Assembly: GCA_964500725.1 (NCBI GenBank) | Contig: CAZCNP010000003.1 | Coordinates: 59,476 to 123,475, forward strand | Reading direction: 5' to 3' | Source: an uncultured Gammaproteobacteria bacterium | GTDB lineage: Bacteria > Patescibacteriota > Microgenomatia > Daviesbacterales > UBA10151 | Length of the DNA stretch: 64,000 bases | Shown here: positions 1,155-18,612 of the stretch, piece by piece | How the letters are laid out: each line of letters begins with the position of its first letter | Position numbering within the stretch: the stretch's first letter is position 1 | Notes under the pieces: generated by a model | The model's input: the letters and a program-made list of their open reading frames with translations, nothing else | Databases searched by the model: none | What the model was told of the DNA's origin: nothing | Translations under genes and position numbers: made by a program

Positions 1155-1538
1155 ATGAAAAAATTAGCAGTTGTAGGCTCTACTATTACAGCTTTATTAA
1201 CACCTATTCAGGTATTGGCACAGGATATAGACATCAAACCTCCCACTCAAGGTTATAGAGATTTGGGACCTTTTATTACCAATCTAATAAGTTTGGCCTT
1301 TATAATTGCCTTGATTCTAGTATTAGTTATGATTATCTGGGGAGCACTTGAATGGATCACTTCAGGCGGAGACAAAGAAAACGTTGGTAAAGCCAGAGGT
1401 AAAATTATTAATGCTTTAATAGGCTTGGCTGTTTTAGCAGTAGCCTTTGCTTTGTTTAGGTTTGCTGGCCAATTCTTAGGATTTAATGTTGGTACTGGAG
1501 GAAGCACGATTAGCCTACCTATACCAAAGCCTAACTAA
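1155..1538 (+). CDS. VirB2/TrbC-like pilin candidate (type IV secretion/pilus subunit)
   Basis: 127 aa with an N-terminal signal peptide followed by two long hydrophobic helices split by a 'TSGGDKENVGKARGK' loop. This is the typical T4SS pilin architecture. The next ORF is a paralog. Confidence 0.5.
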   Translation: MKKLAVVGSTITALLTPIQVLAQDIDIKPPTQGYRDLGPFITNLISLAFIIALILVLVMIIWGALEWITSGGDKENVGKARGKIINALIGLAVLAVAFALFRFAGQFLGFNVGTGGSTISLPIPKPN

Positions 1539-1606
1539 TTTAAGTTCAAAAACTCATTGATCTTCAAAGATATTAGTGGTAAGTTAGAAGATATCTCAAA
1601 ACTCAA

Positions 1607-2032
1607 ATGTCAAAACTGTTAATCATATTTTTTACTTTTTCCTTTTTACTTTTTACCCCTACTTCCCCTGTTTATGCAGTCTGCGACCCTAATGCGCCTA
1701 TCGATAAAAGAAGCGCTGATTGTCCTGCAGGACTTGATCAATTTGAAGCCATGGTTGGACAACTTGTTTTTGTGATTGTAGGACTAGGGTTTATTGCCAC
1801 CCTAGTTATGCTAGTTATGGCTGGGTTTAAATACTTAACATCTGGGGGAGAACCTAAAGCTATCCAAGCTGCCCACCAAACTGCCACCTGGGCTCTTTTA
1901 GGAATACTATTTATGGCTGTTGCCTGGGTGCTCTTGCAACTAATCCAAGGGTTTACAGGAATTCAAGTTACAATATTTGATATTAAAGCTTTGTGCGGTG
2001 TTACTGGAGATCCATTGAAATTCTGTAAATAG
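1607..2032 (+). CDS. VirB2/TrbC-like pilin candidate, tandem paralog
   Basis: 141 aa with a signal peptide (…PVYA) and two hydrophobic helices separated by a 'LTSGGEPKAIQAA' loop. It shares the SGG(D/E) loop with the preceding ORF. Confidence 0.5.
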   Translation: MSKLLIIFFTFSFLLFTPTSPVYAVCDPNAPIDKRSADCPAGLDQFEAMVGQLVFVIVGLGFIATLVMLVMAGFKYLTSGGEPKAIQAAHQTATWALLGILFMAVAWVLLQLIQGFTGIQVTIFDIKALCGVTGDPLKFCK

Positions 2033-2081
2033 ATTATTTAAATGTTTTTCCTGAACCTGGTCTTCATATAAGGGAGGCTGG

Positions 2082-3461
2082 TTATATATTGGAATTTCGG
2101 GAACCTTCCTGAAAAAATTCTTTCCCGTTTAGTATCAACCAGGCCCATAATGGTATAAACTCAATTTTCTTACCCTCTATCTTTTTTACATCAGCATAGT
2201 TTTTAGTGAGCACTATTCCCTGATCGAGATTAAACTCACTCAGTCCCTCAACTAATCCCTCTGCCTCCCTATCATGCGGTTGATCGGTATAACTAACGTT
2301 TACAAATGATAAATTCGGGCTCATCACCACAAAATCTATCTCCCTTTTCCCCCTCCAGTAATATACTGCCGGGTTATTCCTCTTAAGCTCCATATAGACT
2401 ATATTTTCAGCGCATTGCCCGATATCCAGACGGGGAAGCGGTATGTTAAAGTTTCGCAACCCATTATCAACAACATAAATTTTTCTTGGCCGTTGAATAT
2501 CCTGAGTCTCTTTAGTTTTATAGGAAAAATGCCTGCTTTCAAAAAAAAGGTATGCTTTCTCGAAGTACTCAAGATATGATTTTACCGCATCCACTGATAA
2601 CTTTTGCGGCCGGCCTAAACTGCTATAGGTATGTGTTCTGGTAAAATCAGACATTATCTGGAGTCCTAGGACTTCTACCTCTTGAGCGTTCCGGATTGCA
2701 TTTGGCTTTAAAACATCACGGCTGATAATATCGGAATAATAAGCTGCTGCCAGTGTTTTTTTCACTTCCTCTTCCGGGGCTAATATAATTTCAGGATAGC
2801 CACCCTCAAACATATAATTTCCCAAATGGTGAAGGATAGTTGACATTCGGCTAAAATTAGCATCCTGAAGACTTTGTAAAGTATCTCCTCTGACATCTAC
2901 TTTGCGCATTAGAAGGTACTCATAAAAATTGAGGGGATATATATCAAGAACCACATTCCTGCCGGTTAACACCGTAGCTGATTCTGACTCAACCAGCGCC
3001 CGCCTGGATCCTGAAAGAATAAATTTGACAGGTTCCTTCCGTTCATACTTTGAAGCTATCCAGCGATTAAAGTCTTTTATTCCCTGAATCTCATCTAAAA
3101 AAAGATATACTTGTCCCTGAGGATCATATGTTTCCAGATAAAAATTATACAGATCATCTAAGAACTTCCATCCCAAGGAAAGATACTGCTGAGCCAAAAT
3201 ATCCTCTAAAAAGAGAAACAAAATGTTTCTAGCAGGAATGGTTTTTTCTTCCAGCAAATGCTTCACCATCTGTTGCATAAGCGTTGATTTTCCTGCCCGC
3301 CTCACACCGGTTAGAATCAGGACGTGGCGAATATCTAAAAGTTTTTTAAGCCTGGAAAGATACTTTTCTCTTGTCACAGTCCCGATCCAACCCCCTTTTT
3401 GAGGGTTAGTAAAATGAGGGTTCCAGGTATCAATTAATTTTTTCAATATTTCAGTATCCAT
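2082..3461 (-). CDS. AAA+ ATPase of the AAA_14/DUF4143 family
   Basis: Walker A 'LILTGVRRAGKSTLMQQ' and Walker B 'LFLDEIQ' are present. The 459-aa size is typical of DUF4143 ATPases. Confidence 0.8.
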   Translation of the reverse strand: MDTEILKKLIDTWNPHFTNPQKGGWIGTVTREKYLSRLKKLLDIRHVLILTGVRRAGKSTLMQQMVKHLLEEKTIPARNILFLFLEDILAQQYLSLGWKFLDDLYNFYLETYDPQGQVYLFLDEIQGIKDFNRWIASKYERKEPVKFILSGSRRALVESESATVLTGRNVVLDIYPLNFYEYLLMRKVDVRGDTLQSLQDANFSRMSTILHHLGNYMFEGGYPEIILAPEEEVKKTLAAAYYSDIISRDVLKPNAIRNAQEVEVLGLQIMSDFTRTHTYSSLGRPQKLSVDAVKSYLEYFEKAYLFFESRHFSYKTKETQDIQRPRKIYVVDNGLRNFNIPLPRLDIGQCAENIVYMELKRNNPAVYYWRGKREIDFVVMSPNLSFVNVSYTDQPHDREAEGLVEGLSEFNLDQGIVLTKNYADVKKIEGKKIEFIPLWAWLILNGKEFFQEGSRNSNI

Positions 3462-3588
3462 GTACTGTATATCTTACATTAAAAATCACAAACCGTCAAG
3501 TATAACTTAAGGTTTATATATAAAACCTTATGATATAGCTTAGGATTTAAGACTTGCAAAGAAAGACTTTTTGGGTTACTGTTAGATT

Positions 3589-5418
3589 ATGTTTGCCCAG
3601 ATCCTTGCCATACTACTTACTACCAGCTACATACTACTAGCCAGTCCTGTATATGCCCAATCTGCAGCTCCTTCTGCAATACAGTCTACCATCTACAGTC
3701 TACCGACTACAGTAAGTCCTACCTCTCCTCTTTATACTGATCTGCTAGTTAATAATCTATTTCACTCCTTCTCTTGTATTGCTTTAGGGCAATCTGTGAT
3801 TGGACAGCCCTGCTTGACTTACCAGGTTACTCAAAATGCCCAGGGAGTGATTCAAAGTGTACCTATGCTTTCCCAAGTTAATACATCCGGAGGAGCTTTA
3901 GGGACAACCACTTCTTTAATTGGAGCATTATATACTCACCCTCCTGTTAGAACTGCTGATTATTTAGCTTCAGTTAGACAAAATTTTGGGATTGTAAAAG
4001 AAGCTAATGCTCAAGTAGTAGGCTCTGGGGCTCAAGTGTTAAATCCTATTTTAAGCCTCTGGCAGGTATCAAGAAATATTTCTTATGTAATTATGATCAT
4101 CATATTCTTAGTAATAGGACTAATGGTGATGTTTAGGAATAAAATTAACCCCCAAACAGTTATCACAGCTCAAGCAGCTTTACCAGGATTGGTAATTGGA
4201 CTGGTGATGATTACTTTTTCCTTCTTTTTTGCTGGTCTTATTTCTGATATGGCCTTTGTGGGAACTAATGTAGTAGGTTATTATTTTGTGGCAGCTGAAG
4301 GAAAATTAAGCGACTCAACTTTTCAAGACCAACTAAACCTATCACAGAAACTATCAGGCGCTAATATTTTAAACATTATGGGTCCACTCACAGGAATCCT
4401 TGATAATGGAGGCATCTTGCACCTTAACAATCTCGGCGGTGATATATCAAGATTTGCCAGCCTAATTTATGATAATTTAAGCAGCGCAGCACAAGGCGCT
4501 ATTCAGATGTTAGTATTTTGGCTCGCTGCTCAATTTATAGCTCCCATTATACCCACTGATGTTAGTACAAGCCCCTGGATGTTAATACTTAAACCAATAG
4601 TCGGCATAGTAGGAGGGGTAGCTGCAAACCTAGCCTTAGCCCCTCTACTGGGTTTATTCTTAAGTTTTGCTGCTGCTTTAGCCTTAGTCTATCAAATGTT
4701 GAAATTATTCTTTAGGTTAATTATGGCCTGGTTAACCATAATATTTTTGACCATTAGCGCTCCGTTCCAGTTCCTTTTTGCTTCTTTACCAGGCAGACAA
4801 GGAATAGCTACCAGCTGGATTTTACAGATGCTAGGTAATATTTTGATATTTCCAGCTGTTATCGCAGTAATTTATTTTGTGGCTTTCTTACTTGGCCCCC
4901 AAAAGTTCAGCGAGAATTGTCCCAAAGACAACTCTAACCCTAACCAGTGTCTAATCAAAATTTCCGCTGCCAACCAAATCAATAATGGATCATTAATATC
5001 TCCTGTATATGCAACTGATGGCAGAGACATTGTTGGAAGTAATGCTTTTCCTTTATTTGGAGGACTTGATTTAAGTTTTATGAGAATATTATTGGCTTTC
5101 GGAGCTTTAATGGCATTACCGAAAATTCCTGATTTAATAGTTAGTGCTGTAGGGAAGGCCGGACAGGCAGGACAAATGATTGGACAAGAAATTATGGCAG
5201 GTACTGGATTTGGTCAAAGATATACTCAAAGACAATTTGGAGCAGGAATTGAAACTGGCCAAGGTGTTATAAAAGGATCCATAGGTGAAACTACTGTTGA
5301 TGCTTATGGTAATGTAGTACTATCAAGGCAAGGAATACTTCGAAGAGGTGTGGGGTCAAGTATTCCATCAGCAGCAGGTGGTGCTAAAGGCGGAGGTAAA
5401 TGGATATGGAAACCATAG
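3589..5418 (+). CDS. VirB6/TrbL-like polytopic membrane protein (T4SS channel candidate)
   Basis: 609 aa with a signal peptide, a ~150-aa extracytoplasmic N-domain, at least 6 predicted TM helices and a Gly-rich C-terminal tail. It sits next to the pilin-like genes. Confidence 0.5.
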   Translation: MFAQILAILLTTSYILLASPVYAQSAAPSAIQSTIYSLPTTVSPTSPLYTDLLVNNLFHSFSCIALGQSVIGQPCLTYQVTQNAQGVIQSVPMLSQVNTSGGALGTTTSLIGALYTHPPVRTADYLASVRQNFGIVKEANAQVVGSGAQVLNPILSLWQVSRNISYVIMIIIFLVIGLMVMFRNKINPQTVITAQAALPGLVIGLVMITFSFFFAGLISDMAFVGTNVVGYYFVAAEGKLSDSTFQDQLNLSQKLSGANILNIMGPLTGILDNGGILHLNNLGGDISRFASLIYDNLSSAAQGAIQMLVFWLAAQFIAPIIPTDVSTSPWMLILKPIVGIVGGVAANLALAPLLGLFLSFAAALALVYQMLKLFFRLIMAWLTIIFLTISAPFQFLFASLPGRQGIATSWILQMLGNILIFPAVIAVIYFVAFLLGPQKFSENCPKDNSNPNQCLIKISAANQINNGSLISPVYATDGRDIVGSNAFPLFGGLDLSFMRILLAFGALMALPKIPDLIVSAVGKAGQAGQMIGQEIMAGTGFGQRYTQRQFGAGIETGQGVIKGSIGETTVDAYGNVVLSRQGILRRGVGSSIPSAAGGAKGGGKWIWKP

Positions 5419-5445
5419 GCTGTTTTTAAAACATTTTTTAATTTG

Positions 5446-8400
5446 CTACCGGCTCATTTTGTTGAACAACCATTTAGCCCTTGTCATCTCTCGTTTTGGA
5501 TCCAGTATGGTTTTTTCCTTAAGCCTTTTATACCATTGTAGCTCTCCCGGATACGCTTCCCCTCCGCCTCCCTCTGTTTCACTAATAAGCCAATCAATAT
5601 ACGCATTAAAGAATTGCTCCTCTGTATGCCTTGCACTGCCAGTATTTCTATCTTTTGCCAAAGCATTTAGTATCTCTACGTTAGGCTTATCGTCTTTGAG
5701 AACTTCCTTATTTTCCAGATTCAAAGCCCCTTGGGCATTTCTGGTGTCTGATTCCATAGTTCTAACCAGCTTCAGCACAGTCCATAATCTATCAAATGAT
5801 TCTAGTACTAAATTCATAAACTCAATTTCAGCGTTATAATCTTTGAATACTCCTGTCTCGTTTTTTTCCAATCTATCCAAGATTTCTTGTATTTTCCCTA
5901 CCCTCTCTGAATTATTAGTTGGTTTTTCAAACAATCCTTCTATACTAAACCCCTTTTCAGAATCAACATGACCAACTAGAGCACCATAAATCATATTACC
6001 AATCTTCATTTGCTCAACCCATTTAGTTATAGCAAATTGACCGGCTAATCTTTGTTCCGACATCTCTCCAACAGGATCTGCAAACATCTCAATTGCTCCT
6101 AAAACCCCTACCTGCCCCCATTGATCTGGCATCGAGGAAACATTCAAGGGCAAATTAGCAAGTTCCGCAGCATAACGTCTCGCAAATCTTTTAGGATTGC
6201 TGGCCACAAACTGTCTCATCCTAATAATAAATCTTGCTATACCGGAATAATCCTCCAAATTGTAACCTGTACGGAATTTAAAGATATTTCCATCTTTGGG
6301 CATGAAAGCCGCATTTAATTCTCTGACAATTCTCCAATGGCTATAGTTTGATGCCTCAACCGCAGCATCCGAAAGAAGTATCTCAGCCTGCTGAGCACCA
6401 GTACCCTCAGGCATATCAGTATCTTTAAGACTAGGCACCCTATTTAGGGTTGGATCCAAAATTAACCGAATATCAGCCAATTTTTCGTGCTGATCCTCCT
6501 CTGATTCCGGCTCTATCATTAAATCCGGCCTCAATAGCCTCATTCTGCGTCTTTTAGCTGCTTGCACAATATCTGGGTTTATAACCTGATGCCTATTTTC
6601 CGGCTGGTAACTTAAGTAGGAATGATTTAACCATTTGTTTAAAGGATTTTCCGGATCTGTAGCAGTCTCAAAATCTATTATTTCTTCCAGATCTCCATCT
6701 AAACCAATAACATCACCAAAATTAGGTGAATTTTTATCCATATCAAACTTAAGTTTCCCAAACTTAAGTTTAGCTTCATAACCATTAGTTTTTAGTTGTT
6801 GGATGGCAACTGCTCTGGCCTGATCAACTGCTTTTGTTCTAACCTCGGCTGAAGAGTTAGCAAACTGGATCTTAATCCTAGTTTCCACATATTGAATAAA
6901 CATCTCTGCCTCATAAACCGGTATATTATCAACAAACCTGCGCCCATTTCCGTCTTTCCTGTCAATAAAGAATACGCCTCCTCCTCTTCTGGCCTTTTCC
7001 CCTGTTGATCCTACCATTTGAAAAGCTGTAGCAAAATTGGCTTTTGAATGATCATATGCTTCCTCCCAAAACTTTTTATCCCTGTCAGTTAGACGTTTCT
7101 GGGCTATTAATTCATCTATTACATCAATAAGCTGATGTTTTTCTTTTCCATCATGAGGAAGCAATAAAGATTGAACTTTTCCAATAATTACCGATTTTCT
7201 AAGGGCGGGCGAAATTGTACGTAACTCGTCGTCATTCCAATCTCTGTATGTTTGATAATTAATTAGATGAGCATTGCCTGAATCAAATCCATTGTATAAA
7301 CTTTTAAACTCTTCCTTTGGTTGGTGAATACCTATTCTTACCAAATTAGCCGCAATGGCTTTCTCTCTGGCTTGCTCAGCCTCCTCCAGCTTCAACACCC
7401 TGATAGAGTTGGAACCGTATGCAGCTGACTCTACATCCCTTGGGTCATAATTTTTCATCACAACACCCATTCCCTCCTCAATCAAAATTCCTTTAATTTC
7501 AGTATGAAGGTAGTGTTGAGTAACAGTGTCATTTAGTAATTGCCCTCTTGATCCGCCTGGGTTATGCATCAGTTTAATCCTTGGATCATAATCAAATTTC
7601 CATAAATACGCACCAACCGCACCATTACCTGATCTGGCAACCCGTATCCATCTATCGGGGCCTTCGTCCATAGCCATCGCCATCAAAAACTGATGAGCAC
7701 TACTCATATTATAGGTTTCAAATGAATAATCGCCCCCAAATACAAACCCATGACCTTGTAGCTCTTGTCTTAATGCTGTACTAAACCCCTCATCCATATT
7801 TTCTGAAGTGGCTGCTTGACCAACCATTTGTGTAAAATTGTTGAAATGCTCGTAAAGCTCGTTAGGAGATTTACCCAAACGGCCTCCTGTTACCGCACTT
7901 AAGAAGCTATCAACTGCTCTACGAAACTGCTTTGGTGTTTTGGCAAGGATTTCATATGTTTTGGGCCAATGTCCAGGCCTCCAATGAGTTTGTGTGTCAC
8001 CTTCATCATCTATATTCTCACTAACACTAAATTCGCCTTCTATAGGATCAGGCCTCTCACCAGTAAGCATTCTCTCAAGAATATCGCAGGTTCGCTGACT
8101 ATAAGCCTCGGCAATTCCACGCAATGGAGCTGCTCGAGGATCTGTTCTGCGACTCCTTAAAAGCGCTTCAATACTCCCTCTAGCAAAATCCCTAACCCTT
8201 GTTAATTCTTCTTCTACTTGCTGCGGAGGGATATTGCCCTGAGTAATTTGTTTATAAAAGGAAGTAAAAAGGGCATCTGCTCTATCAAGTAAGCCAAAAT
8301 TTCTGGCCTCCTTAAACCAAGTAGCCATATCAACTTCAACCGTTTCTGTATTAGCATCATCTGCGTATTTCTCGAATAATACATTTAGTGATTCTGCAGG

Positions 8401-9123: not shown

Positions 9124-9271
9124 ATCATTCCTTTCCTAGGAAATTCTATGACTAATTCCAGCATAGAACTTCCGAAATTAAATGTCAAAACATTTGCATC
9201 TTAGCAGTCAATTACAAAATGCGCTTGATTTAAAACTGAGAAAATCCTGACAATATTAGTGCTAAATTATG

Positions 9272-9604
9272 TTATGCAGCTTTCTGAAAAAAAGGCCTTG
9301 ATATAGAAATCATCCCTTTTGTACGACATTGACGGCCAGGGTGCACACCTCGATAACATTCAGGACATCTAGGTCTTCTCATTTTTTTTCTTCTTAACCT
9401 CTCTTTTCCTCTATCATCACCTATTGATAATAAATTGCTTTTTGTAACCTCTTGGTCAACCCCCACTCTATAAGGAAGCTTTTCTTCTTTTACATATGCA
9501 ATCAAATCTGTATTGAATCTGGGAATAAGTGGCGATACAATGCCGCAACTAACTGGCAATTTTATTAATTCTTGAGCAGCTTGAGGAATAATTTCTTTTG
9601 TCAT
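9272..9604 (-). CDS. Small basic protein with a C-terminal zinc-ribbon-like CPEC…C motif
   Basis: 110-aa ORF lying between the 1225-aa and 581-aa genes on the same strand. Its C-terminus reads 'RRKKMRRPRCPECYRGVHPGRQCRTKG'. Confidence 0.4.
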   Translation of the reverse strand: MTKEIIPQAAQELIKLPVSCGIVSPLIPRFNTDLIAYVKEEKLPYRVGVDQEVTKSNLLSIGDDRGKERLRRKKMRRPRCPECYRGVHPGRQCRTKGMISISRPFFQKAA

Positions 9605-9658
9605 ACCAACTTTATAACAAAAGTGTATGATATCCTACCTTTTTTAAAATGACAATAA

Positions 9659-11404
9659 CTAACACTGCCTTACTGCAGAGCATTTTGGACACCTCTCTCC
9701 TCTTCTTACCACACATCTTATTTCTGCCCCACAGGCTCCACATTTTATACAATAATCTTTATCTTTAGAAAACAAACCTGAAATCCCTCGAACTACATCT
9801 GAAGACAAACCACTTGTAACTGCTCCTACCCCTCCGGCAGAGAAATCTCCTGAAAAACCACAACCTACCATAACTGCCTTTACTATCATCTTGCCATAAT
9901 AATGCAATTCTTCTTGGAAACTTCTAAGAACCTCAGCCCCTTTTTGAACTGCGTTTTTAACAATTCCTATCCCTCTTTTTACAAGGTTACTTTCCGTTAC
10001 CTGCTCTCTTAGACTATCAAACTTGTTTATAACTGCTTTGTAAGCCTCTCTTACTTTTTCTGGATTAAAGAATTTAGCACAAATAGTCTCTGCATAATAC
10101 ACAATAAATAATCTACACTCCTCTAAATAATACTTAGTCTTCTCTTCCTCTGTCGCTCCTTCTTGTTTTTTAAATTCTGTTGCAAAAATCTGCTGGACGC
10201 TCCTAGTATCTGACTGATCAATATAAATAGGGTTTATTTTAAAATATAGGTCTATACTCTCCTCCATTGGAGCACTTTCTGAATTAAAGTAATTTCTATC
10301 AAGGCTGGTTGCAATTTTTTTGTACGCTTCATAATTTACCCCTGAGGCAAACCTAGTCATTACCACCACAACCTTGCCTGTAGTAGGATCAATAGTCTTT
10401 GTAAAAATATCAACGAAATTATCTGTAAATGCTGTGCCTTTTTTAAGCCCTGGTCCAGAAATAATAACTGCTTTAGACTCTAGAGGTACCTGCGGATCAA
10501 ATAATCCCTTCATTACTTTTTCCCAGCCTTTAAACTCCTCTGCCTCACGTTCGTAATCCACAAATCCCTTTTGTTTGCTATAAACCAAACCTCTTTGCAA
10601 AACCACATCAAAAGATTCTCCAGGAAATTTTGGGTTATATATTTTACCCTTGCTATCTTGGTAATAAACAACTGTACTTTCTGCTGTATGAGCCCGTTCG
10701 TATAAATGTCTTCGCTTATCTTCAATTATCCCCTGCCTTACTGCTTGCCTTTCTGCATCTGTTTTAGCACGCTCATATCTGGCTCTATCTACTGCCGGAT
10801 CGTACGCCAACCTTGGCCCTCCATATATCCCAAGCGCTTTATGCAACTGCTCAACTCTTCTTAAATCTTTACTAAAATCAATAGAACCAGATGAAGGAAA
10901 AATAGTTTTATCTTCTGCTATATTCTGTGTTATCTGGAGCTCTGCAGGGGGCGAAATTCGGTCAGCAGGTCGAGCAAGAATCAATGTGCTATCAAAAGGA
11001 GAAATTTGTTTATTTATGCTATCTAAACTTGGTAAGGTAATATCTTCATCTGATAAAGGTCTCGTATTTTCTAATGCAGAATTCAGGGAAAAAGTAGTTC
11101 TGGGTTTTACTAAAACTACAGTTGATCTCAAATCTACGTCTGGTTTAAACTTATCGCCTGGATCTACCTTAGTTAAAGTACTAATTTTTCTGGAATCTTT
11201 AAGTTTTAAACCGGTAGTTAAGGTTGTAAAATTTGGAGGTGCTTCTACTGTCATATTACTCCTGCTCGGGATAAAAATTGTGGTCGGTCTCCTGACTTTA
11301 CAGTTGCGGCACAGTCTCTGAATTACACAGAGTTCCCTTTTTGTTTCCTTTCTTGCTTTAAGACAAGACGAAACACCACAATTTGTATAATACCAGGATA
11401 ACAA
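9659..11404 (-). CDS. Hypothetical protein (581 aa) with Cys-rich N- and C-termini (zinc-ribbon-like)
   Basis: The N-terminus is 'CGVSSC…CVIQRLCRNC' and the C-terminus is 'CIKCGACGAEIRCVVRRGERCPKCSAVRQC'. No other recognisable motif was found. Confidence 0.6.
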   Translation of the reverse strand: MLSWYYTNCGVSSCLKARKETKRELCVIQRLCRNCKVRRPTTIFIPSRSNMTVEAPPNFTTLTTGLKLKDSRKISTLTKVDPGDKFKPDVDLRSTVVLVKPRTTFSLNSALENTRPLSDEDITLPSLDSINKQISPFDSTLILARPADRISPPAELQITQNIAEDKTIFPSSGSIDFSKDLRRVEQLHKALGIYGGPRLAYDPAVDRARYERAKTDAERQAVRQGIIEDKRRHLYERAHTAESTVVYYQDSKGKIYNPKFPGESFDVVLQRGLVYSKQKGFVDYEREAEEFKGWEKVMKGLFDPQVPLESKAVIISGPGLKKGTAFTDNFVDIFTKTIDPTTGKVVVVMTRFASGVNYEAYKKIATSLDRNYFNSESAPMEESIDLYFKINPIYIDQSDTRSVQQIFATEFKKQEGATEEEKTKYYLEECRLFIVYYAETICAKFFNPEKVREAYKAVINKFDSLREQVTESNLVKRGIGIVKNAVQKGAEVLRSFQEELHYYGKMIVKAVMVGCGFSGDFSAGGVGAVTSGLSSDVVRGISGLFSKDKDYCIKCGACGAEIRCVVRRGERCPKCSAVRQC

Positions 11405-11445
11405 CCTTAGTCAAGACACCTATTCATAAGGTTGCTTAGTGAGGG

Positions 11446-12126
11446 TTATTTCTTAACTACACTCATACCTAATTGCTTTGCTTTCTCCTTATAAAATTCT
11501 TGCAGTTCTTTTAAAGAAAGAGGCACTAACATTTTTGGCAAATCCTCAAACTTTTCTACCTTTAGGAAGTCGCTTCCCAACCATATTAAATCTAGTTCTA
11601 TTCTGAATTTCTCTTTGACAGCATATATCAAGTCCCACAAAGTAAATTCTTTTAAAAGAAAGTACAAATCTATAAAATCTTTAACTTCATTTCTATTAAC
11701 AATAGTTTGTAATTTATTGGCAGCAATATCAAATAAACTATCTACTTGTATCCCTGAAACAGTTAATCCCTTTTTTAATCTCTTATACGGATAATAAGCA
11801 AAATCCACTTTGATTTCTACTTTATTGGCCCTAAGAAGCTCATAGATTCTAGTATATTCTCTTTGCGTGAGCCTAATCTGCAATTTTTTGAAGGCTGCTA
11901 TCTTCTGGATAAAACGGTCAGGGATATCTTTATCGAAATCAGTTTCAGAAAAAAAATCCAGATCTTCAGAATCACGATGCTTAAGATAAGCACTGCTTAA
12001 TGCTGTACCGCCAGTGAAATAAAATTGTTTAATTAATTTGTTGTTTTTAGCAAACTCAGTAAGAATGAATTTTTGCAGAGGAGTTAAAACTAAATCTTCT
12101 AGCAACAAATTATTTACTTTCCCCAT
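11446..12126 (-). CDS. AbiEii/DUF1814-family nucleotidyltransferase (second copy)
   Basis: 'FYFTGGTALSSAYLKHRDSEDLDFFSE' is the same signature seen in the 429..1103 gene. Length is 226 aa. Confidence 0.75.
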   Translation of the reverse strand: MGKVNNLLLEDLVLTPLQKFILTEFAKNNKLIKQFYFTGGTALSSAYLKHRDSEDLDFFSETDFDKDIPDRFIQKIAAFKKLQIRLTQREYTRIYELLRANKVEIKVDFAYYPYKRLKKGLTVSGIQVDSLFDIAANKLQTIVNRNEVKDFIDLYFLLKEFTLWDLIYAVKEKFRIELDLIWLGSDFLKVEKFEDLPKMLVPLSLKELQEFYKEKAKQLGMSVVKK

Positions 12127-12320
12127 ATTAGAAACTCAAATAATCTTTTTCTTGAAGGCTCAAGATTTAGATCATGCCAATGTTTTTTAACTTCTTTTAG
12201 ATCAATTTTTTCTTTATCAGAAGGATAAATCCCATAATTAATTTGTCTTTCTAAAATAAGCAGTCTGCCGCTTTTGGTTTTCTTTAACTTGTTAATATCA
12301 TAATCCCAGATAAAAGGCAT
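12114..12320 (-). CDS. Putative cognate antitoxin/partner of the AbiEii gene (68 aa)
   Basis: It overlaps the upstream end of the AbiEii gene by 13 nt on the same strand. No recognisable motif was found. Confidence 0.3.
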   Translation of the reverse strand: MPFIWDYDINKLKKTKSGRLLILERQINYGIYPSDKEKIDLKEVKKHWHDLNLEPSRKRLFEFLIWGK

Positions 12321-12484
12321 ATTAAAATTATACCACTTTTCCGTAGAAGTTTTGGAAATTTATGAACCATTATACTAAATAGGTATATTTATCTAGTTTC
12401 ATCCAGAATAGTTGAGATTGCCCATAAATGACCTAGTTTGTACCTCTAGACTATAGTTTTTTCACGAGGTATAAAGGGGATAAC

Positions 12485-13504
12485 ATGGAAGCACATCCTA
12501 TCCCGCAAAATGTGACCTCATTCCAATTTAAACTGGTTGGGGATATGACTTTAAAACAATTTGTTTATTTGGCAAGTGGTGTTGGCATGGCTTACCTAAT
12601 TTTTGTATTGTTTGCTGCCAATCTCCCTTTTATTTCTTGGCCTTTTATTATTCTTTTTACTCTGTTGGGGGTAGCTTTTGCTTTTTTACCAATAGAATCC
12701 AGGCCTTTGGATCATTGGCTGGCAGCTTTTCTGACGGCAATCTATTCTCCGACTAAAAGAATTTGGAAGAAAAATGGCAAAAATTACAAAGAAGATGCGT
12801 TATATGCAAGCCGTCTGGTGACATATTTATCAGGACCAGCAAAAGAAGCCCCTCTTGCTATAAAAACAGCAGAGACAGCTCCGCAAACTGCTGATATTTC
12901 TAAATTACCTACTAAAGAAGAGTTACAAAAAACAGTTGATTTAGCCCGCCAAGCCCAACAGCTGCAGATGAAAATAATTCAAACTGAAAGAGCTTTATCC
13001 CAAATTAAAGATCAGGCCCAAAAACCCACCCCAGTACCAATTGATTATGGCCAAGAGGTTAACAAAATCCTGACTGATTTGCAAAGCCTGGTGAGTCAAG
13101 CCTCTGTTATTAAAGAACAAATCCAATCAATTCAAAAGCCCCAAACAGGAGGAGCAAATGTGACTCCTCCACCATTTCCTAAAGAAAAAGTTAAAGTAGT
13201 TATTCCTATCAAGCCTAAACAAACTACAGTAGCTTTAACCACATTCCCAAATGTCCTCAATGGTATTGTCAAAGATGCTCAAAACAATTACTTAGAAAGT
13301 GTAGTGGCAGTTATTTACAATAAAGACGGACTGCCTGTCAGAGCTTTAAAAACCAACAAATTAGGCCAATTTACAGGATCTACCCCACTGCCAAATGGAA
13401 CCTATAACCTTGAGCTTGAAAAAGATAATTTTTCTTTTGATGTCCTGCAAATTGAACTAAGCGGGACAGTTCTACCGCCATTGATGATTACAGCCAAAAC
13501 ATAA
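12485..13504 (+). CDS. PrgI/VirB3-like T4SS membrane protein with a long coiled-coil and beta-sandwich C-terminal extension
   Basis: The N-terminus 'IPQNVTSFQFKLVGDMTLKQFVYLASGVG' plus two TM helices matches the PrgI-family start (…f.GLtlrQf…). A Pro/Gln-rich coiled coil and a ~90-aa C-terminal domain follow. Confidence 0.55.
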   Translation: MEAHPIPQNVTSFQFKLVGDMTLKQFVYLASGVGMAYLIFVLFAANLPFISWPFIILFTLLGVAFAFLPIESRPLDHWLAAFLTAIYSPTKRIWKKNGKNYKEDALYASRLVTYLSGPAKEAPLAIKTAETAPQTADISKLPTKEELQKTVDLARQAQQLQMKIIQTERALSQIKDQAQKPTPVPIDYGQEVNKILTDLQSLVSQASVIKEQIQSIQKPQTGGANVTPPPFPKEKVKVVIPIKPKQTTVALTTFPNVLNGIVKDAQNNYLESVVAVIYNKDGLPVRALKTNKLGQFTGSTPLPNGTYNLELEKDNFSFDVLQIELSGTVLPPLMITAKT

Positions 13505-13507
13505 ATT

Positions 13508-14245
13508 ATGAACACAACCCAAGGCCATCTGGCCATTGCTGACATTTTTGAAAATATCCTCATCTTAAAAGACGGTGGTGGAGCCTTGGTTTTACAAGTA
13601 TCTGCTGTTAACTTTGGCTTACTTTCATCAAGAGAGCAAATTGCCATTATTTCCAGCTTTGCCCAAATGCTAAATTCCTTATCTTTTTGTATTCAAATCG
13701 TTATTCACTCAGAAAGACTGAATATATCTTCTTACTTGCAACTTTTGGATAATGCCAAAAAAGCTCAAACCAATCCCTTACTTTCTCAGATGATCAGTGA
13801 GTATAAACAATTTATTCAAACTACTATAAAAGAAAATGATGTTTTGGATAAAAAATTTTACCTGGTTATCCCCCTTTCCAGCCTGGAACTAGGATTAACC
13901 CCTTCAAAAGAGAATTTACAACAAAAAATCAAAACTGTGCTTTTACCAAGAAGGGATCAAGTAATTAGGCAATTAAGTAGAGTTAGTCTTAGGGCCACTC
14001 AACTTACCAGACAAAAACTAATTGAGCTTTTTTATGATATTTATAATGGTGAATTTTTGGAAACCCCGGTTGTAGAGCCAGTTAACCCTGAACAACTCAC
14101 TGTTAGGCTTAATTCCCCACAGCAAAATATCGAGAAGCAACCAGTTGTAGCAGCGCCACCTCCTCCTCAAGCTGCTCAAGCAGAACCTATGATAACTCAA
14201 AACACCAGAACCCACCCTTTTGTGGTAGAGGAGCTGGAAGGGTAA
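13508..14245 (+). CDS. VirB4/ConE-like N-terminal domain segment, separated from the ATPase ORF by an in-frame TAA
   Basis: 'ILILKDGGGALVLQVSAVNFGLLSSREQIAIISSFAQMLNSL…IQIVIHSERLN' resembles the N-terminal region of Gram-positive VirB4-family ATPases. It is in the same frame as 14249..16006, with a single TAA plus one codon between them. Confidence 0.5.
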   Translation: MNTTQGHLAIADIFENILILKDGGGALVLQVSAVNFGLLSSREQIAIISSFAQMLNSLSFCIQIVIHSERLNISSYLQLLDNAKKAQTNPLLSQMISEYKQFIQTTIKENDVLDKKFYLVIPLSSLELGLTPSKENLQQKIKTVLLPRRDQVIRQLSRVSLRATQLTRQKLIELFYDIYNGEFLETPVVEPVNPEQLTVRLNSPQQNIEKQPVVAAPPPPQAAQAEPMITQNTRTHPFVVEELEG

Positions 14246-14248
14246 TTT

Positions 14249-16006
14249 ATGAATATTTTTGATAAACTTAAAAAGGCAAAACCAGTTGAGGAGGCCAAAC
14301 CTCAGTTAACCTTAGAAGATGCTATTGCTCCTTCAGAAATTGAAGTTGATTTTAAACATTTAAGGCTAAATAACCACTTTTTCAAAACCTATTTTGTGTC
14401 TGGCTACCCCAGATTTGTTGATCCAAACTGGCTAGAACCTTTAATCTCCTTTGATCACTCGCTTTTGATCTCCATGTTTATTTACCCTTCTGGCTCCCAA
14501 GGAGTCTTGGATGAGTTAAAACGTAAAATTGCTGAGATGGAAGCAACCATCCAAACAGACCTGGAACGGGGCAGAGCCATAGATCCAGCAGTTGAGGTAG
14601 CTTTGGAAGATGCCAGAGGGCTGCAAGACCAACTGGTAAGAGGGGTAGAGAGATTTTTCCAATTTGCTCTCTATATTAGTGTGCCAGCCTCATCTTTAGA
14701 TGAGCTTCGCAACACCTCAAAATTGATTGAGTCTACTTTAGCCTCACTATCTATTACTGCCAAGCAAACCACCTTACAAATGGAAAATGGTTTTAAATCC
14801 ACCCTGCCTCAAGGCACAGATTTATTAAACTTGACCCACAATATGGATACTACCTCTTTGGCAACCACTTTTCCCTTTGCTTCATCAGAGCTAACTGCCA
14901 ATGAAGGAATTATGTATGGCATCAACCAACATAATGATTCTTTAATTCTTTTTGATCGATTCAGTTTAGAGAACGCAAACTCGGTTATATTCGCCAAAGC
15001 TGGAAGCGGTAAGTCCTATTTAGTCAAGCTGGAAGCTTTGAGATCTTTAATGTTTGGCACTGAAATTATCGCCATTGACCCTGAGCAGGAATACTTGCCC
15101 TTAGCCCAAGCTGTTGGGGGAGAGTATATTAACTTTTCCCCCTCCAGCCCAGCCAGGATTAATCCTTTTGACATGTCAGGCATTGCCATCCCTGGAGAAA
15201 ATGAGCTAGGCAGAAAAATCCTCTCTTTAACTGTTTTTTTAAAGATTATTTTGGGCAACTTAACTGCCCAGGAAGCAGCCATTTTAGACAGAGCTTTAAA
15301 GCAAACTTACTATCAAAAAGGCATTACTGATGATCCTAAAACCCAAAATAAAGTGCCTCCTTTGATGGAAGACCTGTATAAAGTTTTAATTGGGATGGAG
15401 GAAGGACCTGCTATGGACTTGGCTGCCAGGTTGGAAAGATTTATTAAAGGATCTCTGGTGGGAATTTTCTCAGCTCAATCAAATATTGATCTTTCCAACT
15501 CCTTTACAGTTTTTTCAGTCAGGGATTTACCAGACCAGCTAAGACCTCTGGCTATCCATCTGATTTTGGACTATGTGTGGACCAAGGTCAGAAGCAAGCT
15601 CAAAAAAAGGATTTTAATTGTAGATGAGGCTTGGTATTTGATGAGAAACCAGGATTCTGCTGACTTTTTGGTAGATATTGCCAAAAGATCAAGAAAATAT
15701 TATTTAGGACTCACAACAATAACTCAAGATGTGGAGGACTTTTTGGCAACTGAAAGAGGCAAAGAGATTATCTCCAACTCTTCTATTCAGATCCTTTTAA
15801 AACAAGCTCCAGCTTCAATTGATTTGCTAACCCAAGTTTTTGATCTATCAGAAGGGGAACAAAGGCTTTTAATGTCTGAGGGTATTGGTGAGGGAATCTT
15901 TTTTGCAGGCAATACTCATGTGGCTATTGGTGTGGTGGCCTCCCCCAAAGAACACCAACTAATCACCACCAATCCAGCTGAAATCTTGGCAAGACAAAAC
16001 AAATAA
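14249..16006 (+). CDS. VirB4/TrbE/ConE-family type IV secretion ATPase (Walker A/B part)
   Basis: Walker A 'FAKAGSGKSYLVK', Walker B 'ILIVDEAWYL' and an upstream 'YFVSGYPRFVDPNWLEPL' VirB4 N-domain motif are present. Confidence 0.85.
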   Translation: MNIFDKLKKAKPVEEAKPQLTLEDAIAPSEIEVDFKHLRLNNHFFKTYFVSGYPRFVDPNWLEPLISFDHSLLISMFIYPSGSQGVLDELKRKIAEMEATIQTDLERGRAIDPAVEVALEDARGLQDQLVRGVERFFQFALYISVPASSLDELRNTSKLIESTLASLSITAKQTTLQMENGFKSTLPQGTDLLNLTHNMDTTSLATTFPFASSELTANEGIMYGINQHNDSLILFDRFSLENANSVIFAKAGSGKSYLVKLEALRSLMFGTEIIAIDPEQEYLPLAQAVGGEYINFSPSSPARINPFDMSGIAIPGENELGRKILSLTVFLKIILGNLTAQEAAILDRALKQTYYQKGITDDPKTQNKVPPLMEDLYKVLIGMEEGPAMDLAARLERFIKGSLVGIFSAQSNIDLSNSFTVFSVRDLPDQLRPLAIHLILDYVWTKVRSKLKKRILIVDEAWYLMRNQDSADFLVDIAKRSRKYYLGLTTITQDVEDFLATERGKEIISNSSIQILLKQAPASIDLLTQVFDLSEGEQRLLMSEGIGEGIFFAGNTHVAIGVVASPKEHQLITTNPAEILARQNK

Positions 16007-16021
16007 TGATAAGTTAAACTT

Positions 16022-18130
16022 ATGGCTGATATACACTTTTTAAATGTTTTAGAATTTGAACGGTTTAAATCGTTGCTGTCTGGAAAAACCCTAACTTTAG
16101 CAGAAAAAATTAGCGCCTTAGACACCCTGCGCGAAAAATTACCTGATTTATTTGCCAATTTAACAGCTGGACTATCACCCCAACAACTAAAAGATAATCT
16201 ATTTTTAATCAGGCATTTAACAAACTCACGCAACATAAACAAAATTAAGCTAGCTTTAAGAAAAGAATCATCCCTTTCTCCAGCCCAACAACTTGCGTTA
16301 GAACTAGCTTTGGAAGAAGCTGCTACAAAAGAACCTTTAGCAGAGCAGGCTACACCAACAGCAGCTCAAACTGAAGAAGCTCCTTTACCCTCCCAACCTA
16401 ACCCTTCTGCTTCAAGCGGATTTGGCGGGATGCCTTCTGCTGGAATGTCTTCTTCCGCCTCAGGTCGGGTTTTTGTAAAAGAAGCACCAACAAGTGGCAA
16501 GGCAGGCGGAACAGGTCAAGGAACAGCAGCCACCAATAAAATAAACCGAGCAAATGTGGGTAAAACAATCCAGTTTCCAAAAGCTCCGGCAAGTTTTGTA
16601 AACACTGCTAAAAATTTTAGCTCAAGTTCTCAGATATTTACCAAAAGATGGGGAGGCAGGATATTTAATGGGCTAACCCAAGTTGCCTTGCCTGGCGGAG
16701 CCAGCCTATTAGGCAAAACAGGACTGGGAGCTATCAATCATGGTGGAAATTTTATTAGTAATTTATCAAACACAAGGCTGCGAATGGTAAATAATATCAA
16801 AGGAGCTGGATCAGGATTGTCTTCTTCTTTGCAAGGAGGCAAAAAATTTGCCTTAGCTTCTGTCTTAGCTTTTTTTCTACTTTTAGGTATTGCTATTTCT
16901 GGAGCTACCAATGGCACTACTCCAACAAGTGAGGCTGCTCCAATTAGTACAGGTGGAACAGATATTTCCAACTGTAAATTTACCAGATCAGGCAAACCCC
17001 AACCTATCAAAAGCTCCATTCTTTCAGGCTGGATTAGTTCTACAGCAGTTTCAGCTGGAATTCCTTCGCAAATCTTGGCAGGTATTGCAATGCATGAGAA
17101 TCCAAATTTCCTTCAAACTAAAGAAAATACAGATGAAGAAATTAAAACTAACCGCTTTTGCAATTCTGGAGCAGACTTTTGTGTAAACCAGGATAAAAGC
17201 AAAAATATTCACATGGGCAAATGCACTGATGCAGAAATTGCAGCAGGCAATAGCAACGCTAGCGCTATTGGGTTAATGCAAATTGTTGATGTACATTATC
17301 CAGAAGTGGATTTATGTAATATTCAAACAAATATTGCCTTAGCAGCCCAAATATTTAAAGGCAAGCTTGGAAGCGGATCAATAAATAGTGAGGCAGATCT
17401 TAAGAAAGCTGTTTGTTTATACTATGGAGCGCAAGATGATACAGAGTGCACATATGAGGAGAAATACCACTATGGCCAAGAGGTGTGGAATGATTACCAA
17501 AACTGTCAAACTACCTCTGCTGTAGCTATTTTGCCTGCCCCTGTAAACGGGGATCACAAAAGTTGGGTAAATGGAAACTTTAATATTGATGTATCAGAAC
17601 TACCAGATCAGTATGCATTGTGGGCATACGAAGTTTTAAATGCCTCAACAAGCAAAGCTCCTAAGTTTCGAGGTCTTATTTATAACAAACCAACTAAGGT
17701 TGTCCCTGCAACAGAAGGCAGCTATACCAGTGGGGATACAATCAATATCAGAGCTGGTTATGATGCTAACTTTTTCAAACAAATATTTATTCATGAGCTA
17801 GGACACAGAATAAAAGGTGCTGCTGGAACAACTTCTCCTCAATGCGGAGGAGAAACCCTAGAACAAATACAAGATAGAGAAAAATACTTAACTTATTATG
17901 CTGAAAATGCTACTCCAGCCAATGTAAAAAGCCCTGCTTGCGGCAGCAATGATCAAGCAACCAAAAGTGATGAGGACTTTGCTGAATCCGTATCTTATTA
18001 TATTAATAATATTCCTGAACTTAATTATGGTTCAGACTGCTCAACATATGGCACAGTAAATCCCTATAATCGAACCGCCCAATCCCGTCCTTTGCATAAA
18101 GCATATATTCAGTGTCTTTTAGGTCCTTAG
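16022..18130 (+). CDS. Membrane-anchored cell-wall hydrolase, VirB1-like lytic transglycosylase domain fused to an HExxH zinc-metallopeptidase-like domain
   Basis: A Gly/Ser-rich cytoplasmic N-region is followed by one TM helix (FALASVLAFFLLLGIAISGA). The SLT-like motif reads '…AMHENPNF…AIGLMQIVD'. 'IFIHELGHRIKG' supplies an HExxH motif. The extracellular part is Cys-rich. Confidence 0.6.
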   Translation: MADIHFLNVLEFERFKSLLSGKTLTLAEKISALDTLREKLPDLFANLTAGLSPQQLKDNLFLIRHLTNSRNINKIKLALRKESSLSPAQQLALELALEEAATKEPLAEQATPTAAQTEEAPLPSQPNPSASSGFGGMPSAGMSSSASGRVFVKEAPTSGKAGGTGQGTAATNKINRANVGKTIQFPKAPASFVNTAKNFSSSSQIFTKRWGGRIFNGLTQVALPGGASLLGKTGLGAINHGGNFISNLSNTRLRMVNNIKGAGSGLSSSLQGGKKFALASVLAFFLLLGIAISGATNGTTPTSEAAPISTGGTDISNCKFTRSGKPQPIKSSILSGWISSTAVSAGIPSQILAGIAMHENPNFLQTKENTDEEIKTNRFCNSGADFCVNQDKSKNIHMGKCTDAEIAAGNSNASAIGLMQIVDVHYPEVDLCNIQTNIALAAQIFKGKLGSGSINSEADLKKAVCLYYGAQDDTECTYEEKYHYGQEVWNDYQNCQTTSAVAILPAPVNGDHKSWVNGNFNIDVSELPDQYALWAYEVLNASTSKAPKFRGLIYNKPTKVVPATEGSYTSGDTINIRAGYDANFFKQIFIHELGHRIKGAAGTTSPQCGGETLEQIQDREKYLTYYAENATPANVKSPACGSNDQATKSDEDFAESVSYYINNIPELNYGSDCSTYGTVNPYNRTAQSRPLHKAYIQCLLGP

Positions 18131-18612
18131 TTTTATATAATAAAAACATGCCTAGACTGGGATTAAAAAAATTTGGGGTAATTATAACTGCTGCAATCAT
18201 CTTGATCTCTATTTTTGGCTATAAACTGTATTCTAAACCCACTCCTCCAACAGCTCAACCTACTGCTCGACCCTCTTTCTCTCCTGGACCAAATGATCCT
18301 CCCCAGATAGTTTCTACCAAACCTGACCCTTTGAATGAAACCATTATTTCTGCTGCTGAAATTATAGAGATTACCTTTAACAGGCCTTTGGAAAATGTCG
18401 GCGAGTTCAAAAGCAGAATGGAACCTAAAATAGAATATAAAGTCGAGCTTATAAATGACCGTAAAACAGCCAGAATCATCCCAGCCAAACCTTATGAACT
18501 TGGAGCTACTTATAATCTATATATTGGCCCTGACAGCAAGTTTGATGGGGTAGGAGAGTGGAAACAAGATAAAAGCTTTCATTTTAGAACCATCCCTTAT
18601 AAAGGGGTCTAA
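18112..18612 (+). CDS. Small membrane-anchored protein (N-terminal TM, Pro-rich linker, beta-rich domain)
   Basis: 166-aa ORF that overlaps the hydrolase gene by 19 nt and is the last gene of the plus-strand T4SS-like operon. Confidence 0.4.
   Translation: MSFRSLVLYNKNMPRLGLKKFGVIITAAIILISIFGYKLYSKPTPPTAQPTARPSFSPGPNDPPQIVSTKPDPLNETIISAAEIIEITFNRPLENVGEFKSRMEPKIEYKVELINDRKTARIIPAKPYELGATYNLYIGPDSKFDGVGEWKQDKSFHFRTIPYKGV

Follow-up and report, generated by a model that had tools for sequence, protein, structure and literature searches.

A cobalamin riboswitch and its associated protein family within an origin-proximal type IV secretion locus of Candidatus Daviesbacteria

Layout of the locus

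We analysed a stretch of 64,000 nucleotides (64 kb) of contig CAZCNP010000003.1, here called the window, whose proteins are 100% identical to metagenome-assembled entries of Candidatus Daviesbacteria. The window contains an origin-proximal chromosomal type IV secretion system (T4SS) locus that is typical of Patescibacteria and akin to monoderm conjugation machinery, and within this locus a predicted cobalamin riboswitch that directly precedes a gene here termed A. The locus is organized in three transcription blocks. The first comprises the pilins followed by a membrane protein at the VirB6 position, and the second the genes for a PrgI-like protein, a TrsD-like protein, VirB4, a hydrolase-like protein and an immunoglobulin (Ig)-like anchored protein. 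The third lies between these two on the opposite strand and consists of a promoter-like site, the cobalamin riboswitch, A and two further genes, S and B. All open reading frames (ORFs) listed in an earlier reading of the bare sequence, the first-pass annotation, were found at the coordinates given there. The features of the third block are:

11387-11414, minus strand: promoter-like site (TTGACT, 16 nt, TG-TATTAT) from a consensus scan, 10/12 matches, extended -10
11265-11395, minus strand: cobalamin riboswitch aptamer in the 5' untranslated region (UTR) of A, Rfam RF00174
9659-11254, minus strand: protein A, 531 amino acids (aa), true start ATG 11254; member of a widespread family accompanying cobalamin riboswitches
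9272-9604, minus strand: protein S, 110 aa, Arg-rich, with a CCHC zinc knuckle (regular expression; weak zf-CCHC_5 match)
5446-9123, minus strand: protein B, 1225 aa, soluble, mostly helical and lineage-specific, with 130 disordered residues at the N-terminus

The riboswitch and the start of gene A

The aptamer matches RF00174 over its full length (model positions 1-189) with 61.2 bits against a gathering score of 31.5 (E 1e-12). On the minus strand, the promoter-like site is followed by the aptamer and then by CCCGAGCAGGAGTAATATG with a Shine-Dalgarno sequence and a start codon, both of which lie within 10 nt of the aptamer end. The aptamer overlaps the first 50 codons of an ORF that had been read as a 581-aa protein starting with TTG at 11404. 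The ATG at 11254 has the Shine-Dalgarno sequence AGGAG in front and gives a protein of 531 aa that is identical to the deposited protein HY383_01890. As riboswitch, Shine-Dalgarno sequence and start codon all lie within its 5' end, the longer ORF is over-extended and ATG 11254 is the true start; the first-pass annotation set the start wrongly because it missed the riboswitch. Thus, the three same-strand orphan genes that it had reported do exist, and the length of 581 aa gives way to 531 aa.

The promoter-like site would start the transcript at the P1 stem of the riboswitch, but the evidence for it is weak, as the region shows no enrichment of such sites. When the leader was folded for minimum free energy, the aptamer fold did not appear (z-score -0.43), and this result was not used as evidence. 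Judged by its sequence, the element is a genuine cobalamin aptamer directly 5' of A, and it very probably regulates this gene.

Conservation of the riboswitch and A as a unit

The riboswitch and A form a unit that is conserved across divergent loci. Related loci (L001, L003 and so on) were retrieved via homologues of A, via homologues of the protein at the VirB6 position and via members of an exhaustive profile search. A match to the cobalamin clan (Rfam RF00174 / RF01689, clan CL00101) or the exact core motif described below is present 5' of A or its operon in all 14 of the 14 related loci with upstream DNA, a set that includes duplicate fetches or near-identical contigs and corresponds to about eleven distinct genomic places. 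Upstream of A, the clan matches scored 56 bits in L005, 49 bits in L012, 46 bits in L013, 45 bits each in L003 and L006, 44 bits in L017, 41 bits in L001, 35 bits in L007 (below the gathering score; local E 1e-6) and a weak 21 bits in L018, while the match of L015 (51 bits) stands at the head of an operon.

The exact 15-nt core CTRTGCCGYAACYGT occurs in one copy each in 13 of 18 loci, L008, L016 and L018 among them, and always just 5' of A or its operon. Between loci, compensatory changes are seen in the stem that encloses the conserved GUGNAANUC loop (CTCTG/CAGAG, GATAG/CTATC, CGTGG/CCACG and CACGG/CCGTG). A post-aptamer element, CCCGAGCAGGAG, which includes the Shine-Dalgarno sequence, is likewise conserved across loci. 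In L015, a terminator-like hairpin and seven consecutive T residues come after the aptamer. That one aptamer is coupled to different expression platforms argues for real regulation. Neither a riboswitch match nor the core motif, even with two mismatches allowed, was found in L014, the locus without A, which keeps a giant protein and the VirB6-like gene though A is absent.

The gene context of the unit differs between loci. In L015, the order is NrdR, class II ribonucleotide reductase, riboswitch, DUF4430, DUF6580, PduO-type adenosyltransferase and A, followed by a 159-aa protein and a VirD4-like ATPase, the whole set lying on one strand with gaps of <=130 nt. We take DUF4430 in this operon to be a transcobalamin-like binding domain. 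In L016, a Cob_adeno_trans adenosyltransferase gene precedes the core motif and A, and a VirD4-like ATPase is encoded further on. L015 and L016 are syntenic relatives and count as about one independent lineage. In L017, riboswitch and A lie amid DNA-repair and housekeeping genes. From the gene context in these three loci, A is predicted to belong to the vitamin B12 regulon. Since A travels with the riboswitch, adjoins B12 genes in two loci and occurs in L017 without T4SS genes, it is not specific to the T4SS.

At the position of A, L014 has PPDK_N and phosphoenolpyruvate (PEP)-utilizer genes instead. This set (16738-20500, minus strand) resembles a split PEP synthase or rifampicin phosphotransferase and consists of a PPDK_N ATP-grasp protein and two proteins with PEP-utilizer mobile domains at their ends. 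A-family profiles match neither the PPDK_N nor the PEP-utilizer proteins, and a weak match of A to PEP synthase (E 0.011) was not reproducible.

The protein A family

In protein A, a disordered N-terminus and an alpha/beta core are combined with an invariant GCG motif and a zinc ribbon at the C-terminus. When 1.84 billion cluster representatives were searched exhaustively with an HMMER profile, the family came to 343 clusters at 50% identity (E<=1e-3), 141 of them at E<=1e-30, with lengths of 360-650 aa. This search corrected a word-index search that had found 15 clusters only; pattern-based scans of genome and metagenome contigs, with three loci of which two are duplicates, also understate the family. 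None of the members looked up bears a functional name, and the ten longest members have no fused domains. A four-cysteine zinc ribbon is present at the C-terminal end of most inspected members. In an alignment of 118 sequences, E186, R187, G222, C465 (of the GCG motif) and C505 are invariant and several Arg, Glu, Asp and Ser positions nearly so. This conservation reads as that of an enzyme or ligand-binding protein more than that of a scaffold.

Searches of A against Pfam, NCBIfam, PADLOC, PHROGs and PDB sequences gave no usable match, and the deep family profile matched PDB entries only with the C-terminal zinc ribbon, which is of the ribosomal L37ae type. A structural comparison, which the first-pass annotation had named as a check on both large orphan proteins, returned no match for A. 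A defence-system reading of A and B was rejected (PADLOC gave no usable match), as was the identification of A as a B12-independent ribonucleotide reductase, for which its core of ~300 residues is too small and to which no match among known reductases was obtained. Gene context suggests that A probably has a role in B12 acquisition or handling; that A itself is a B12-handling factor we consider an even bet.

Proteins B and S

B has no match in Pfam, NCBIfam, PADLOC, PHROGs or PDB sequences, and its AlphaFold2 model (mean predicted local distance difference test score, pLDDT, 64.7) gave no Foldseek match at E<=1e-3, so that the proposed structural check was negative for this protein, too. Homologues of B form 17 clusters only, and the B gene is always convergent with the gene at the VirB6 position. 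In L012, L013 and L014, the slot of B is occupied by giant proteins of 1362-1690 aa that are homologous to each other and not to B (L012 11827-15915, L013 11809-16881, L014 11813-16558; B in the window 5446-9123, minus strand). B as a remote homologue of these proteins was rejected at an hhalign probability of 3%. Most members of both giant-protein families share an N-terminal leader, MAEG(T)..GPEG, which is usually preceded by a 'PEN' derived from the Shine-Dalgarno sequence when the ORF is read from the upstream ATG. The leader may act as a recognition tag common to both families or mark a boundary of recombination, and the pattern would fit variable cargo behind a common tag.

The zinc knuckle of S, CPECYRGVHPGRQC, comprises residues 80-93 and is situated within an Arg-rich stretch. 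Beyond the weak zf-CCHC_5 match, S found no usable match in the same five databases. Small Arg-rich, Cys-containing proteins analogous to S are encoded between A and B in L003, L005, L012 and L018. The exact CCHC knuckle in an Arg-rich stretch, together with these analogous proteins, suggests nucleic-acid binding by S.

The trio of A, S and B is conserved at this position in the Daviesbacteria-type loci examined. The three orphan genes that had been described as a block embedded in the T4SS gene set are therefore a conserved trio at a fixed position, but not a single T4SS-specific block. B tracks the VirB6-like gene and the T4SS genes, and A tracks the riboswitch; as B stays in L014 without A or riboswitch, A and B are separable units.

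The conserved position raises an explanation that refines the first-pass view of the three genes as candidate substrates or structural components. In this explanation, the T4SS would use A, S and B as substrates, effectors or accessory parts, and cobalamin would serve only as an environmental cue for the timing of their production (such as host contact or nutritional state), with A performing no B12 chemistry directly. The place of the trio is the same throughout the Daviesbacteria-type T4SS loci examined, two non-homologous giant-protein families alternate at the slot of B, and their common leader is typical of variable cargo behind a recognition tag. Furthermore, A and B have long disordered N-termini, the invariable basic zinc ribbon at the C-terminus of A could serve the coupling ATPase as a recognition signal, and a VirD4-like ATPase is encoded downstream of A in L015 and L016. 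However, L017 has A and the riboswitch without any T4SS gene, B persists in L014 without either, and no secretion signal or effector domain was detectable in the Pfam, NCBIfam, PADLOC, PHROGs and PDB scans. In addition, the gene directly before A in L015 and L016 encodes a B12 adenosyltransferase, and DUF4430 and DUF6580 belong to the L015 operon, a context that points to B12 metabolism rather than to a mere cue. We thus regard an exclusive role of the trio as T4SS substrates or accessory parts as unlikely.

Components of the secretion apparatus

The T4SS genes of the first and second block and the adjoining origin region are:

1155-1538, plus strand: VirB2-like T4SS pilin 1, 127 aa; PF18895 T4SS_pilin 1.2e-9
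1607-2032, plus strand: VirB2-like T4SS pilin 2, 141 aa; PF18895 2.4e-7
3589-5418, plus strand: polytopic membrane protein, 609 aa, at the VirB6/PrgH position; assigned from topology and position
12485-13504, plus strand: PrgI/VirB3-like membrane protein, 339 aa; PF12666 7e-9, residues 5-93
13508-14245, plus strand: TrsD-like protein, 245 aa, the VirB4 N-terminal domain as a separate gene; NCBIfam TrsD/TraD 6e-8
14249-16006, plus strand: VirB4-type ATPase, 585 aa; NCBIfam conju_CD1110 1e-114, Pfam P-loop_TraG 6e-24
16022-18130, plus strand: candidate cell-wall hydrolase, 702 aa, at the VirB1 position; GLMQ and HELGH motifs, one transmembrane segment
18112-18612, plus strand: membrane-anchored Ig-like protein, 166 aa; PF13205 Big_5 1e-5, N-terminal transmembrane segment
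18609-21692, minus strand: dnaN, Holliday-resolvase-like endonuclease and dnaA genes (Pfam), marking the chromosomal origin region

The two tandem pilins had been recognized as VirB2/TrbC-like in the first-pass annotation, and both indeed match PF18895 above its cutoff. They have the same topology with a signal-like segment and two hydrophobic segments; pilin arrays in related loci comprise 2-6 genes. The 609-aa protein, which had been described as VirB6/TrbL-like, has ~8-10 hydrophobic segments and at least 308 homologue clusters, all named ones from Daviesbacteria or Microgenomates. In related loci, its gene is always located 3' of the pilin array and faces the giant-protein gene. Even as a 39-sequence profile, the protein found no match in Pfam, NCBIfam, PHROGs or PDB, and TrbL, VirB6 and PrgH models did not match either. 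Its polytopic nature and conserved position are borne out, and in the absence of a hidden Markov model (HMM) or PDB match the VirB6 identity is proposed from topology and position.

In the second block, the PrgI/VirB3-like protein with its long extension was borne out by PF12666 in the N-terminal 93 residues (36.5 bits against a cutoff of 27), and its C-terminal part has a weak CarboxypepD_reg-like match (5e-4). The identity of the VirB4-type ATPase also stands (conju_CD1110, 384 bits against a cutoff of 325). Directly upstream, however, lies the separate TrsD-like ORF (13508-14245), which was missing from the earlier list and which aligns to VirB4 profile positions 26-169 and 131-276. A separate TraC-like ORF was called in L003, L005, L006, L007, L012 and L013. 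Of the combined lytic transglycosylase and metallopeptidase that had been proposed for the 702-aa protein, the sequence shows only the GLMQ motif at residue 417 and the HELGH motif at residue 591, and no HMM or PDB match was obtained; the protein in this position in L003 has a CHAP domain. The small anchored protein noted before has one transmembrane segment and a Big_5 domain.

Two side observations concern these components. The VirB4 gene of L006 (1402-4953, minus strand) encodes 1183 aa with an intein (Intein_splicing and LAGLIDADG endonuclease domain). Small 23S_rRNA_IVP / bAvd-like genes occur amid pilin arrays and beside PrgI in L001 (20430-20786), L007 (9274-9651), L013 (7016-7402 and 9525-9884) and L014 (5304-5711), and might belong to diversity-generating retroelements acting on pilins.

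The locus adjoins dnaN (18609-19724), the Holliday-resolvase-like endonuclease gene (19721-20176) and dnaA (20349-21692). The same layout beside dnaA/dnaN is found in L001, L003, L004, L005 and L007, so that the comparison of synteny agrees with the first-pass interpretation of a chromosomal, non-conjugative, monoderm-type T4SS-like apparatus of a reduced-genome bacterium, as does the published picture. A scan of the window ORFs, which comprised all non-overlapping ORFs of at least 250 aa and 19 smaller ones and left out a few ORFs below 250 aa outside the block, detected neither a VirD4 nor a relaxase nor an integrase domain; this is in line with the absence of such genes claimed before.

The homology of VirB4, TrsD and PrgI to monoderm conjugation proteins, and the toxin-antitoxin and Abi cassettes, which are common on mobile elements, would agree with a degraded or split integrative conjugative element that has its relaxase, coupling protein and integrase beyond the window. 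The same locus, however, stands beside dnaA/dnaN with housekeeping neighbours in at least five other contigs. The window contains no tRNA gene, and its GC content is uniform (0.33-0.41) without a compositional break. Most Patescibacteria T4SS clusters are devoid of a relaxase as well (PMC12102498). Given the housekeeping flanks (dnaN, dnaA) and the absence of relaxase, VirD4 and integrase domains from the window ORFs scanned, the conjugative element was rejected and retains next to no probability.

Inserted cassettes and other genes of the window

Three insertions interrupt the T4SS locus or border on it:

116-1103, plus strand: AbiEi C-terminal fragment (116-439) and AbiEii toxin (429-1103); PADLOC AbiEi 1e-23, AbiEii 4e-56, PF08843 6e-26
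2082-3461, minus strand: AAA_14 and DUF4143 ATPase, candidate defence gene; Pfam 3e-30 and 6e-18, PADLOC PDC-S01 4e-93
11446-12320, minus strand: second AbiEii toxin (11446-12126) and a 68-aa upstream ORF; PF08843 1e-17, PADLOC AbiEii

The AbiEi fragment covers profile positions 82-185 of 186 (PADLOC), so that both modules belong to the AbiE type IV toxin-antitoxin system, the first pairing an AbiEi fragment with AbiEii and the second pairing AbiEii with the unassigned 68-aa ORF. The second cassette is located between the riboswitch promoter and the PrgI operon; in L003, L005, L012 and L013, the gap before the PrgI operon is without it. The AAA_14/DUF4143 ATPase is an inserted gene and not part of the T4SS, and is absent from this position in L001, L003, L012 and L013. 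The junctions of the T4SS locus collect toxin-antitoxin or defence cassettes that differ between genomes, among them PIN/PhdYeFM, RelB/YafQ, HicA, BrnT/CopG and Fic in L003, L005, L014 and L018. The flanking AbiEii modules of the first-pass annotation therefore exist (429-1103 and 11446-12126), but merely as two of many interchangeable junction cassettes.

This readiness to accept unrelated genes (toxin-antitoxin, AAA_14 ATPase, PPDK_N and PEP-utilizer genes) also bears on an explanation by accidental co-location, according to which A is a cytoplasmic protein of the B12 regulon, either a factor for B12 handling or a substitute enzyme that needs no B12, B is unrelated and the origin-adjacent locus simply rearranges rarely. 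It gains from the separability of A and B in L014, L015, L016 and L017, and from the T4SS-linked examples, which all come from one clade with named homologues exclusively from Daviesbacteria or Microgenomates. Accident does not, however, account well for L012, where A has stayed in place despite a sequence too divergent for profile detection, nor for the occurrence of T4SS-type genes beside A in two architectures, one with the VirB-type cluster and one with the VirD4-like ATPase (L015/L016). Mere coincidence hence appears rather improbable.

Several further features of the window were recorded. A nucleotidyltransferase (Polbeta/MNT) and HepT-like RNase toxin-antitoxin pair (21772-22589, plus strand) adjoins dnaA. 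A second riboswitch, of the S-adenosylmethionine type SAM-I/IV (39258-39398, plus strand; RF01725, 44.7 bits against a gathering score of 41.1), precedes a 125-aa ORF without Pfam match (39426-39803), a 95-aa ORF and a YafQ/ParE-type toxin gene. Near this riboswitch lies an S-adenosylhomocysteine hydrolase gene (42291-43547, minus strand), which is flanked by the genes of two paralogous proteins, each with Schlafen AlbA_2 and HATPase_c_4 domains (40594-42192, minus strand, and 43570-45123, plus strand). Orphan proteins of 1601 aa (47588-52393, plus strand; an N-terminal Peptidase_M48 match only) and 918 aa (59275-62031, plus strand; no match, just upstream of groES) are also encoded.

A probably cobalamin-controlled protein in a secretion locus

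Taken together, we favour the explanation, with a probability of roughly 0.6, that this is a T4SS locus of Daviesbacteria with a cobalamin riboswitch controlling A, and that A functions in the acquisition or handling of B12. Going by the known behaviour of this riboswitch class, plentiful cobalamin would cause the RNA to hide the ribosome-binding site, so that A would not be made. When B12 is scarce, A would be made, probably also S and B downstream where these are contiguous. In L015, the terminator-like hairpin behind the aptamer instead hints at regulation through transcription termination. The gene context is consistent with an action of A on the cofactor, for instance by binding, reducing or delivering it. 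More speculatively, A may work through T4SS-type machinery, with B and S as locus-specific partners or cargo of the T4SS.

Several observations weigh against one or the other part of this explanation. With regard to B12, A lacks the DxHxxG B12 motif, which only 3 of 150 family members possess, and no B12-dependent enzyme is encoded in the 64 kb. No cobalamin-binding domain of the BtuF, transcobalamin or DxHxxG Rossmann type was recognized in A with Pfam and NCBIfam. The missing signature lowers the case for A as a known type of B12 binder, not the case for a function in B12 handling. With regard to joint transcription with A, promoter-like sites are located 5' of both S and B, and A and B are set apart by toxin-antitoxin cassettes in L001, L003 and L005. 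With regard to the T4SS, no T4SS genes are found near A in L017, unrelated cassettes enter the T4SS locus easily, and the link is drawn from synteny in one order and two related loci with a VirD4-like neighbour. The fixed place of A in Daviesbacteria-type loci and the VirD4-like ATPase that is encoded behind it in L015 and L016 speak for a functional link between A and the T4SS, which nevertheless appears doubtful to us.

A bolder version, to which we give little credit, makes the Daviesbacteria T4SS part of a response to cobalamin starvation, in which the riboswitch would free A, S and B to work with the VirB-type channel or a VirD4-like ATPase. The machinery might then extract cobalamin from the host cell or, alternatively, bring in DNA or deoxynucleotides of the host, so that the B12-dependent class II ribonucleotide reductase could be replaced without B12. 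If true, a T4SS would for the first time be connected with a metabolite-sensing RNA, and there would be a concrete lead on the transported material.

Apart from this, the family of A with its at least 343 clusters would be a new member of the B12 regulon in organisms that are thought to be unable to make B12. Should the co-location be accidental, there would still be a corrected annotation (start codon, missed RNA element and missed TrsD gene) and a large dark-matter protein family linked to B12.

Comparison with known systems

Chromosomal T4SS of Patescibacteria have been described by Quinonero-Coronel et al. (2025, Microb Genom; PMC12102498). Their VirB4 is related to the monoderm MPF-FATA class, TrsD is the commonest partner and VirB3 is of the PrgI type; VirB2 arrays occur especially in Microgenomatia, where VirB6 homologues are scarce or hard to detect (PMC12102498). 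Relaxases are almost absent, and the clusters are often near dnaA and dnaN (PMC12102498). The locus in the window shares the MPF-FATA-type VirB4, the separate TrsD, the PrgI-type VirB3, the tandem VirB2-like pilins, the lack of a nearby relaxase or coupling protein and the adjacency to dnaA/dnaN. It differs by the conserved polytopic protein at the VirB6 position and by the A-S-B trio under a B12 riboswitch in mid-locus. The main interpretation of the first-pass annotation was therefore right but not new, since the same locus type had already been described. That publication makes no mention of riboswitches, cobalamin or B12 (PMC12102498), and in the PMC/bioRxiv literature we found no paper joining a cobalamin riboswitch, or a riboswitch of any kind, with Patescibacteria, candidate phyla radiation (CPR), Daviesbacteria or type IV secretion. 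While the T4SS architecture is thus known, the cobalamin riboswitch and the A family are the new element.

The Trs system of pGO1/pSK41 and the Prg system of pCF10 resemble the locus in TrsD and VirB4, PrgI and small anchored proteins, and their polytopic channel protein and cell-wall hydrolase may have counterparts in its 609-aa membrane protein and its candidate hydrolase. In contrast to these systems, the locus in the window is without a coupling protein or relaxase in 64 kb and without a recognized oriT, has VirB2-like pilins that Gram-positive systems lack, and is chromosomal and vertically conserved rather than located on a mobile element.

Cobalamin riboswitches control operons for B12 uptake and salvage (btuB, btuFCD, cbrT/energy-coupling factor (ECF) type). 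As in these operons, the aptamer resides in the 5' UTR directly before the regulated gene, and in L015 it heads an operon with DUF4430 and a PduO-type adenosyltransferase. However, A is unlike any known B12 transporter, binder or processing enzyme, and in Daviesbacteria-type loci it is embedded in a secretion-system locus. In Mycobacterium tuberculosis, the PPE2-cobQ-cobU operon sits behind a cobalamin riboswitch, and PPE2 is tied to type VII secretion. Here, too, a secretion-related gene is placed under a B12 riboswitch, a likeness in logic only, as the M. tuberculosis case concerns a type VII system, an unrelated protein family and another phylum.

For Saccharibacteria, a 2024 review called the role of the T4SS "completely unknown", reported it to be essential in the single species tested and treated effector delivery and the uptake of nutrients or nucleotides as merely speculated (PMC11665869). 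A ligand-sensing RNA in a T4SS locus would provide a testable handle on this essential system with its unexplained function. The same review named riboswitches as a wanted tool for inducible expression in these bacteria (PMC11665869), for which native riboswitches such as those described here presumably are functional. Finally, the ComB T4SS of Helicobacter pylori takes up DNA (PMC11665869). ComB is of the diderm VirB type and without known riboswitch control; like the locus in the window, it is a T4SS without relaxase, and it sets an import precedent for the acquisition of host material by the T4SS of Patescibacteria.

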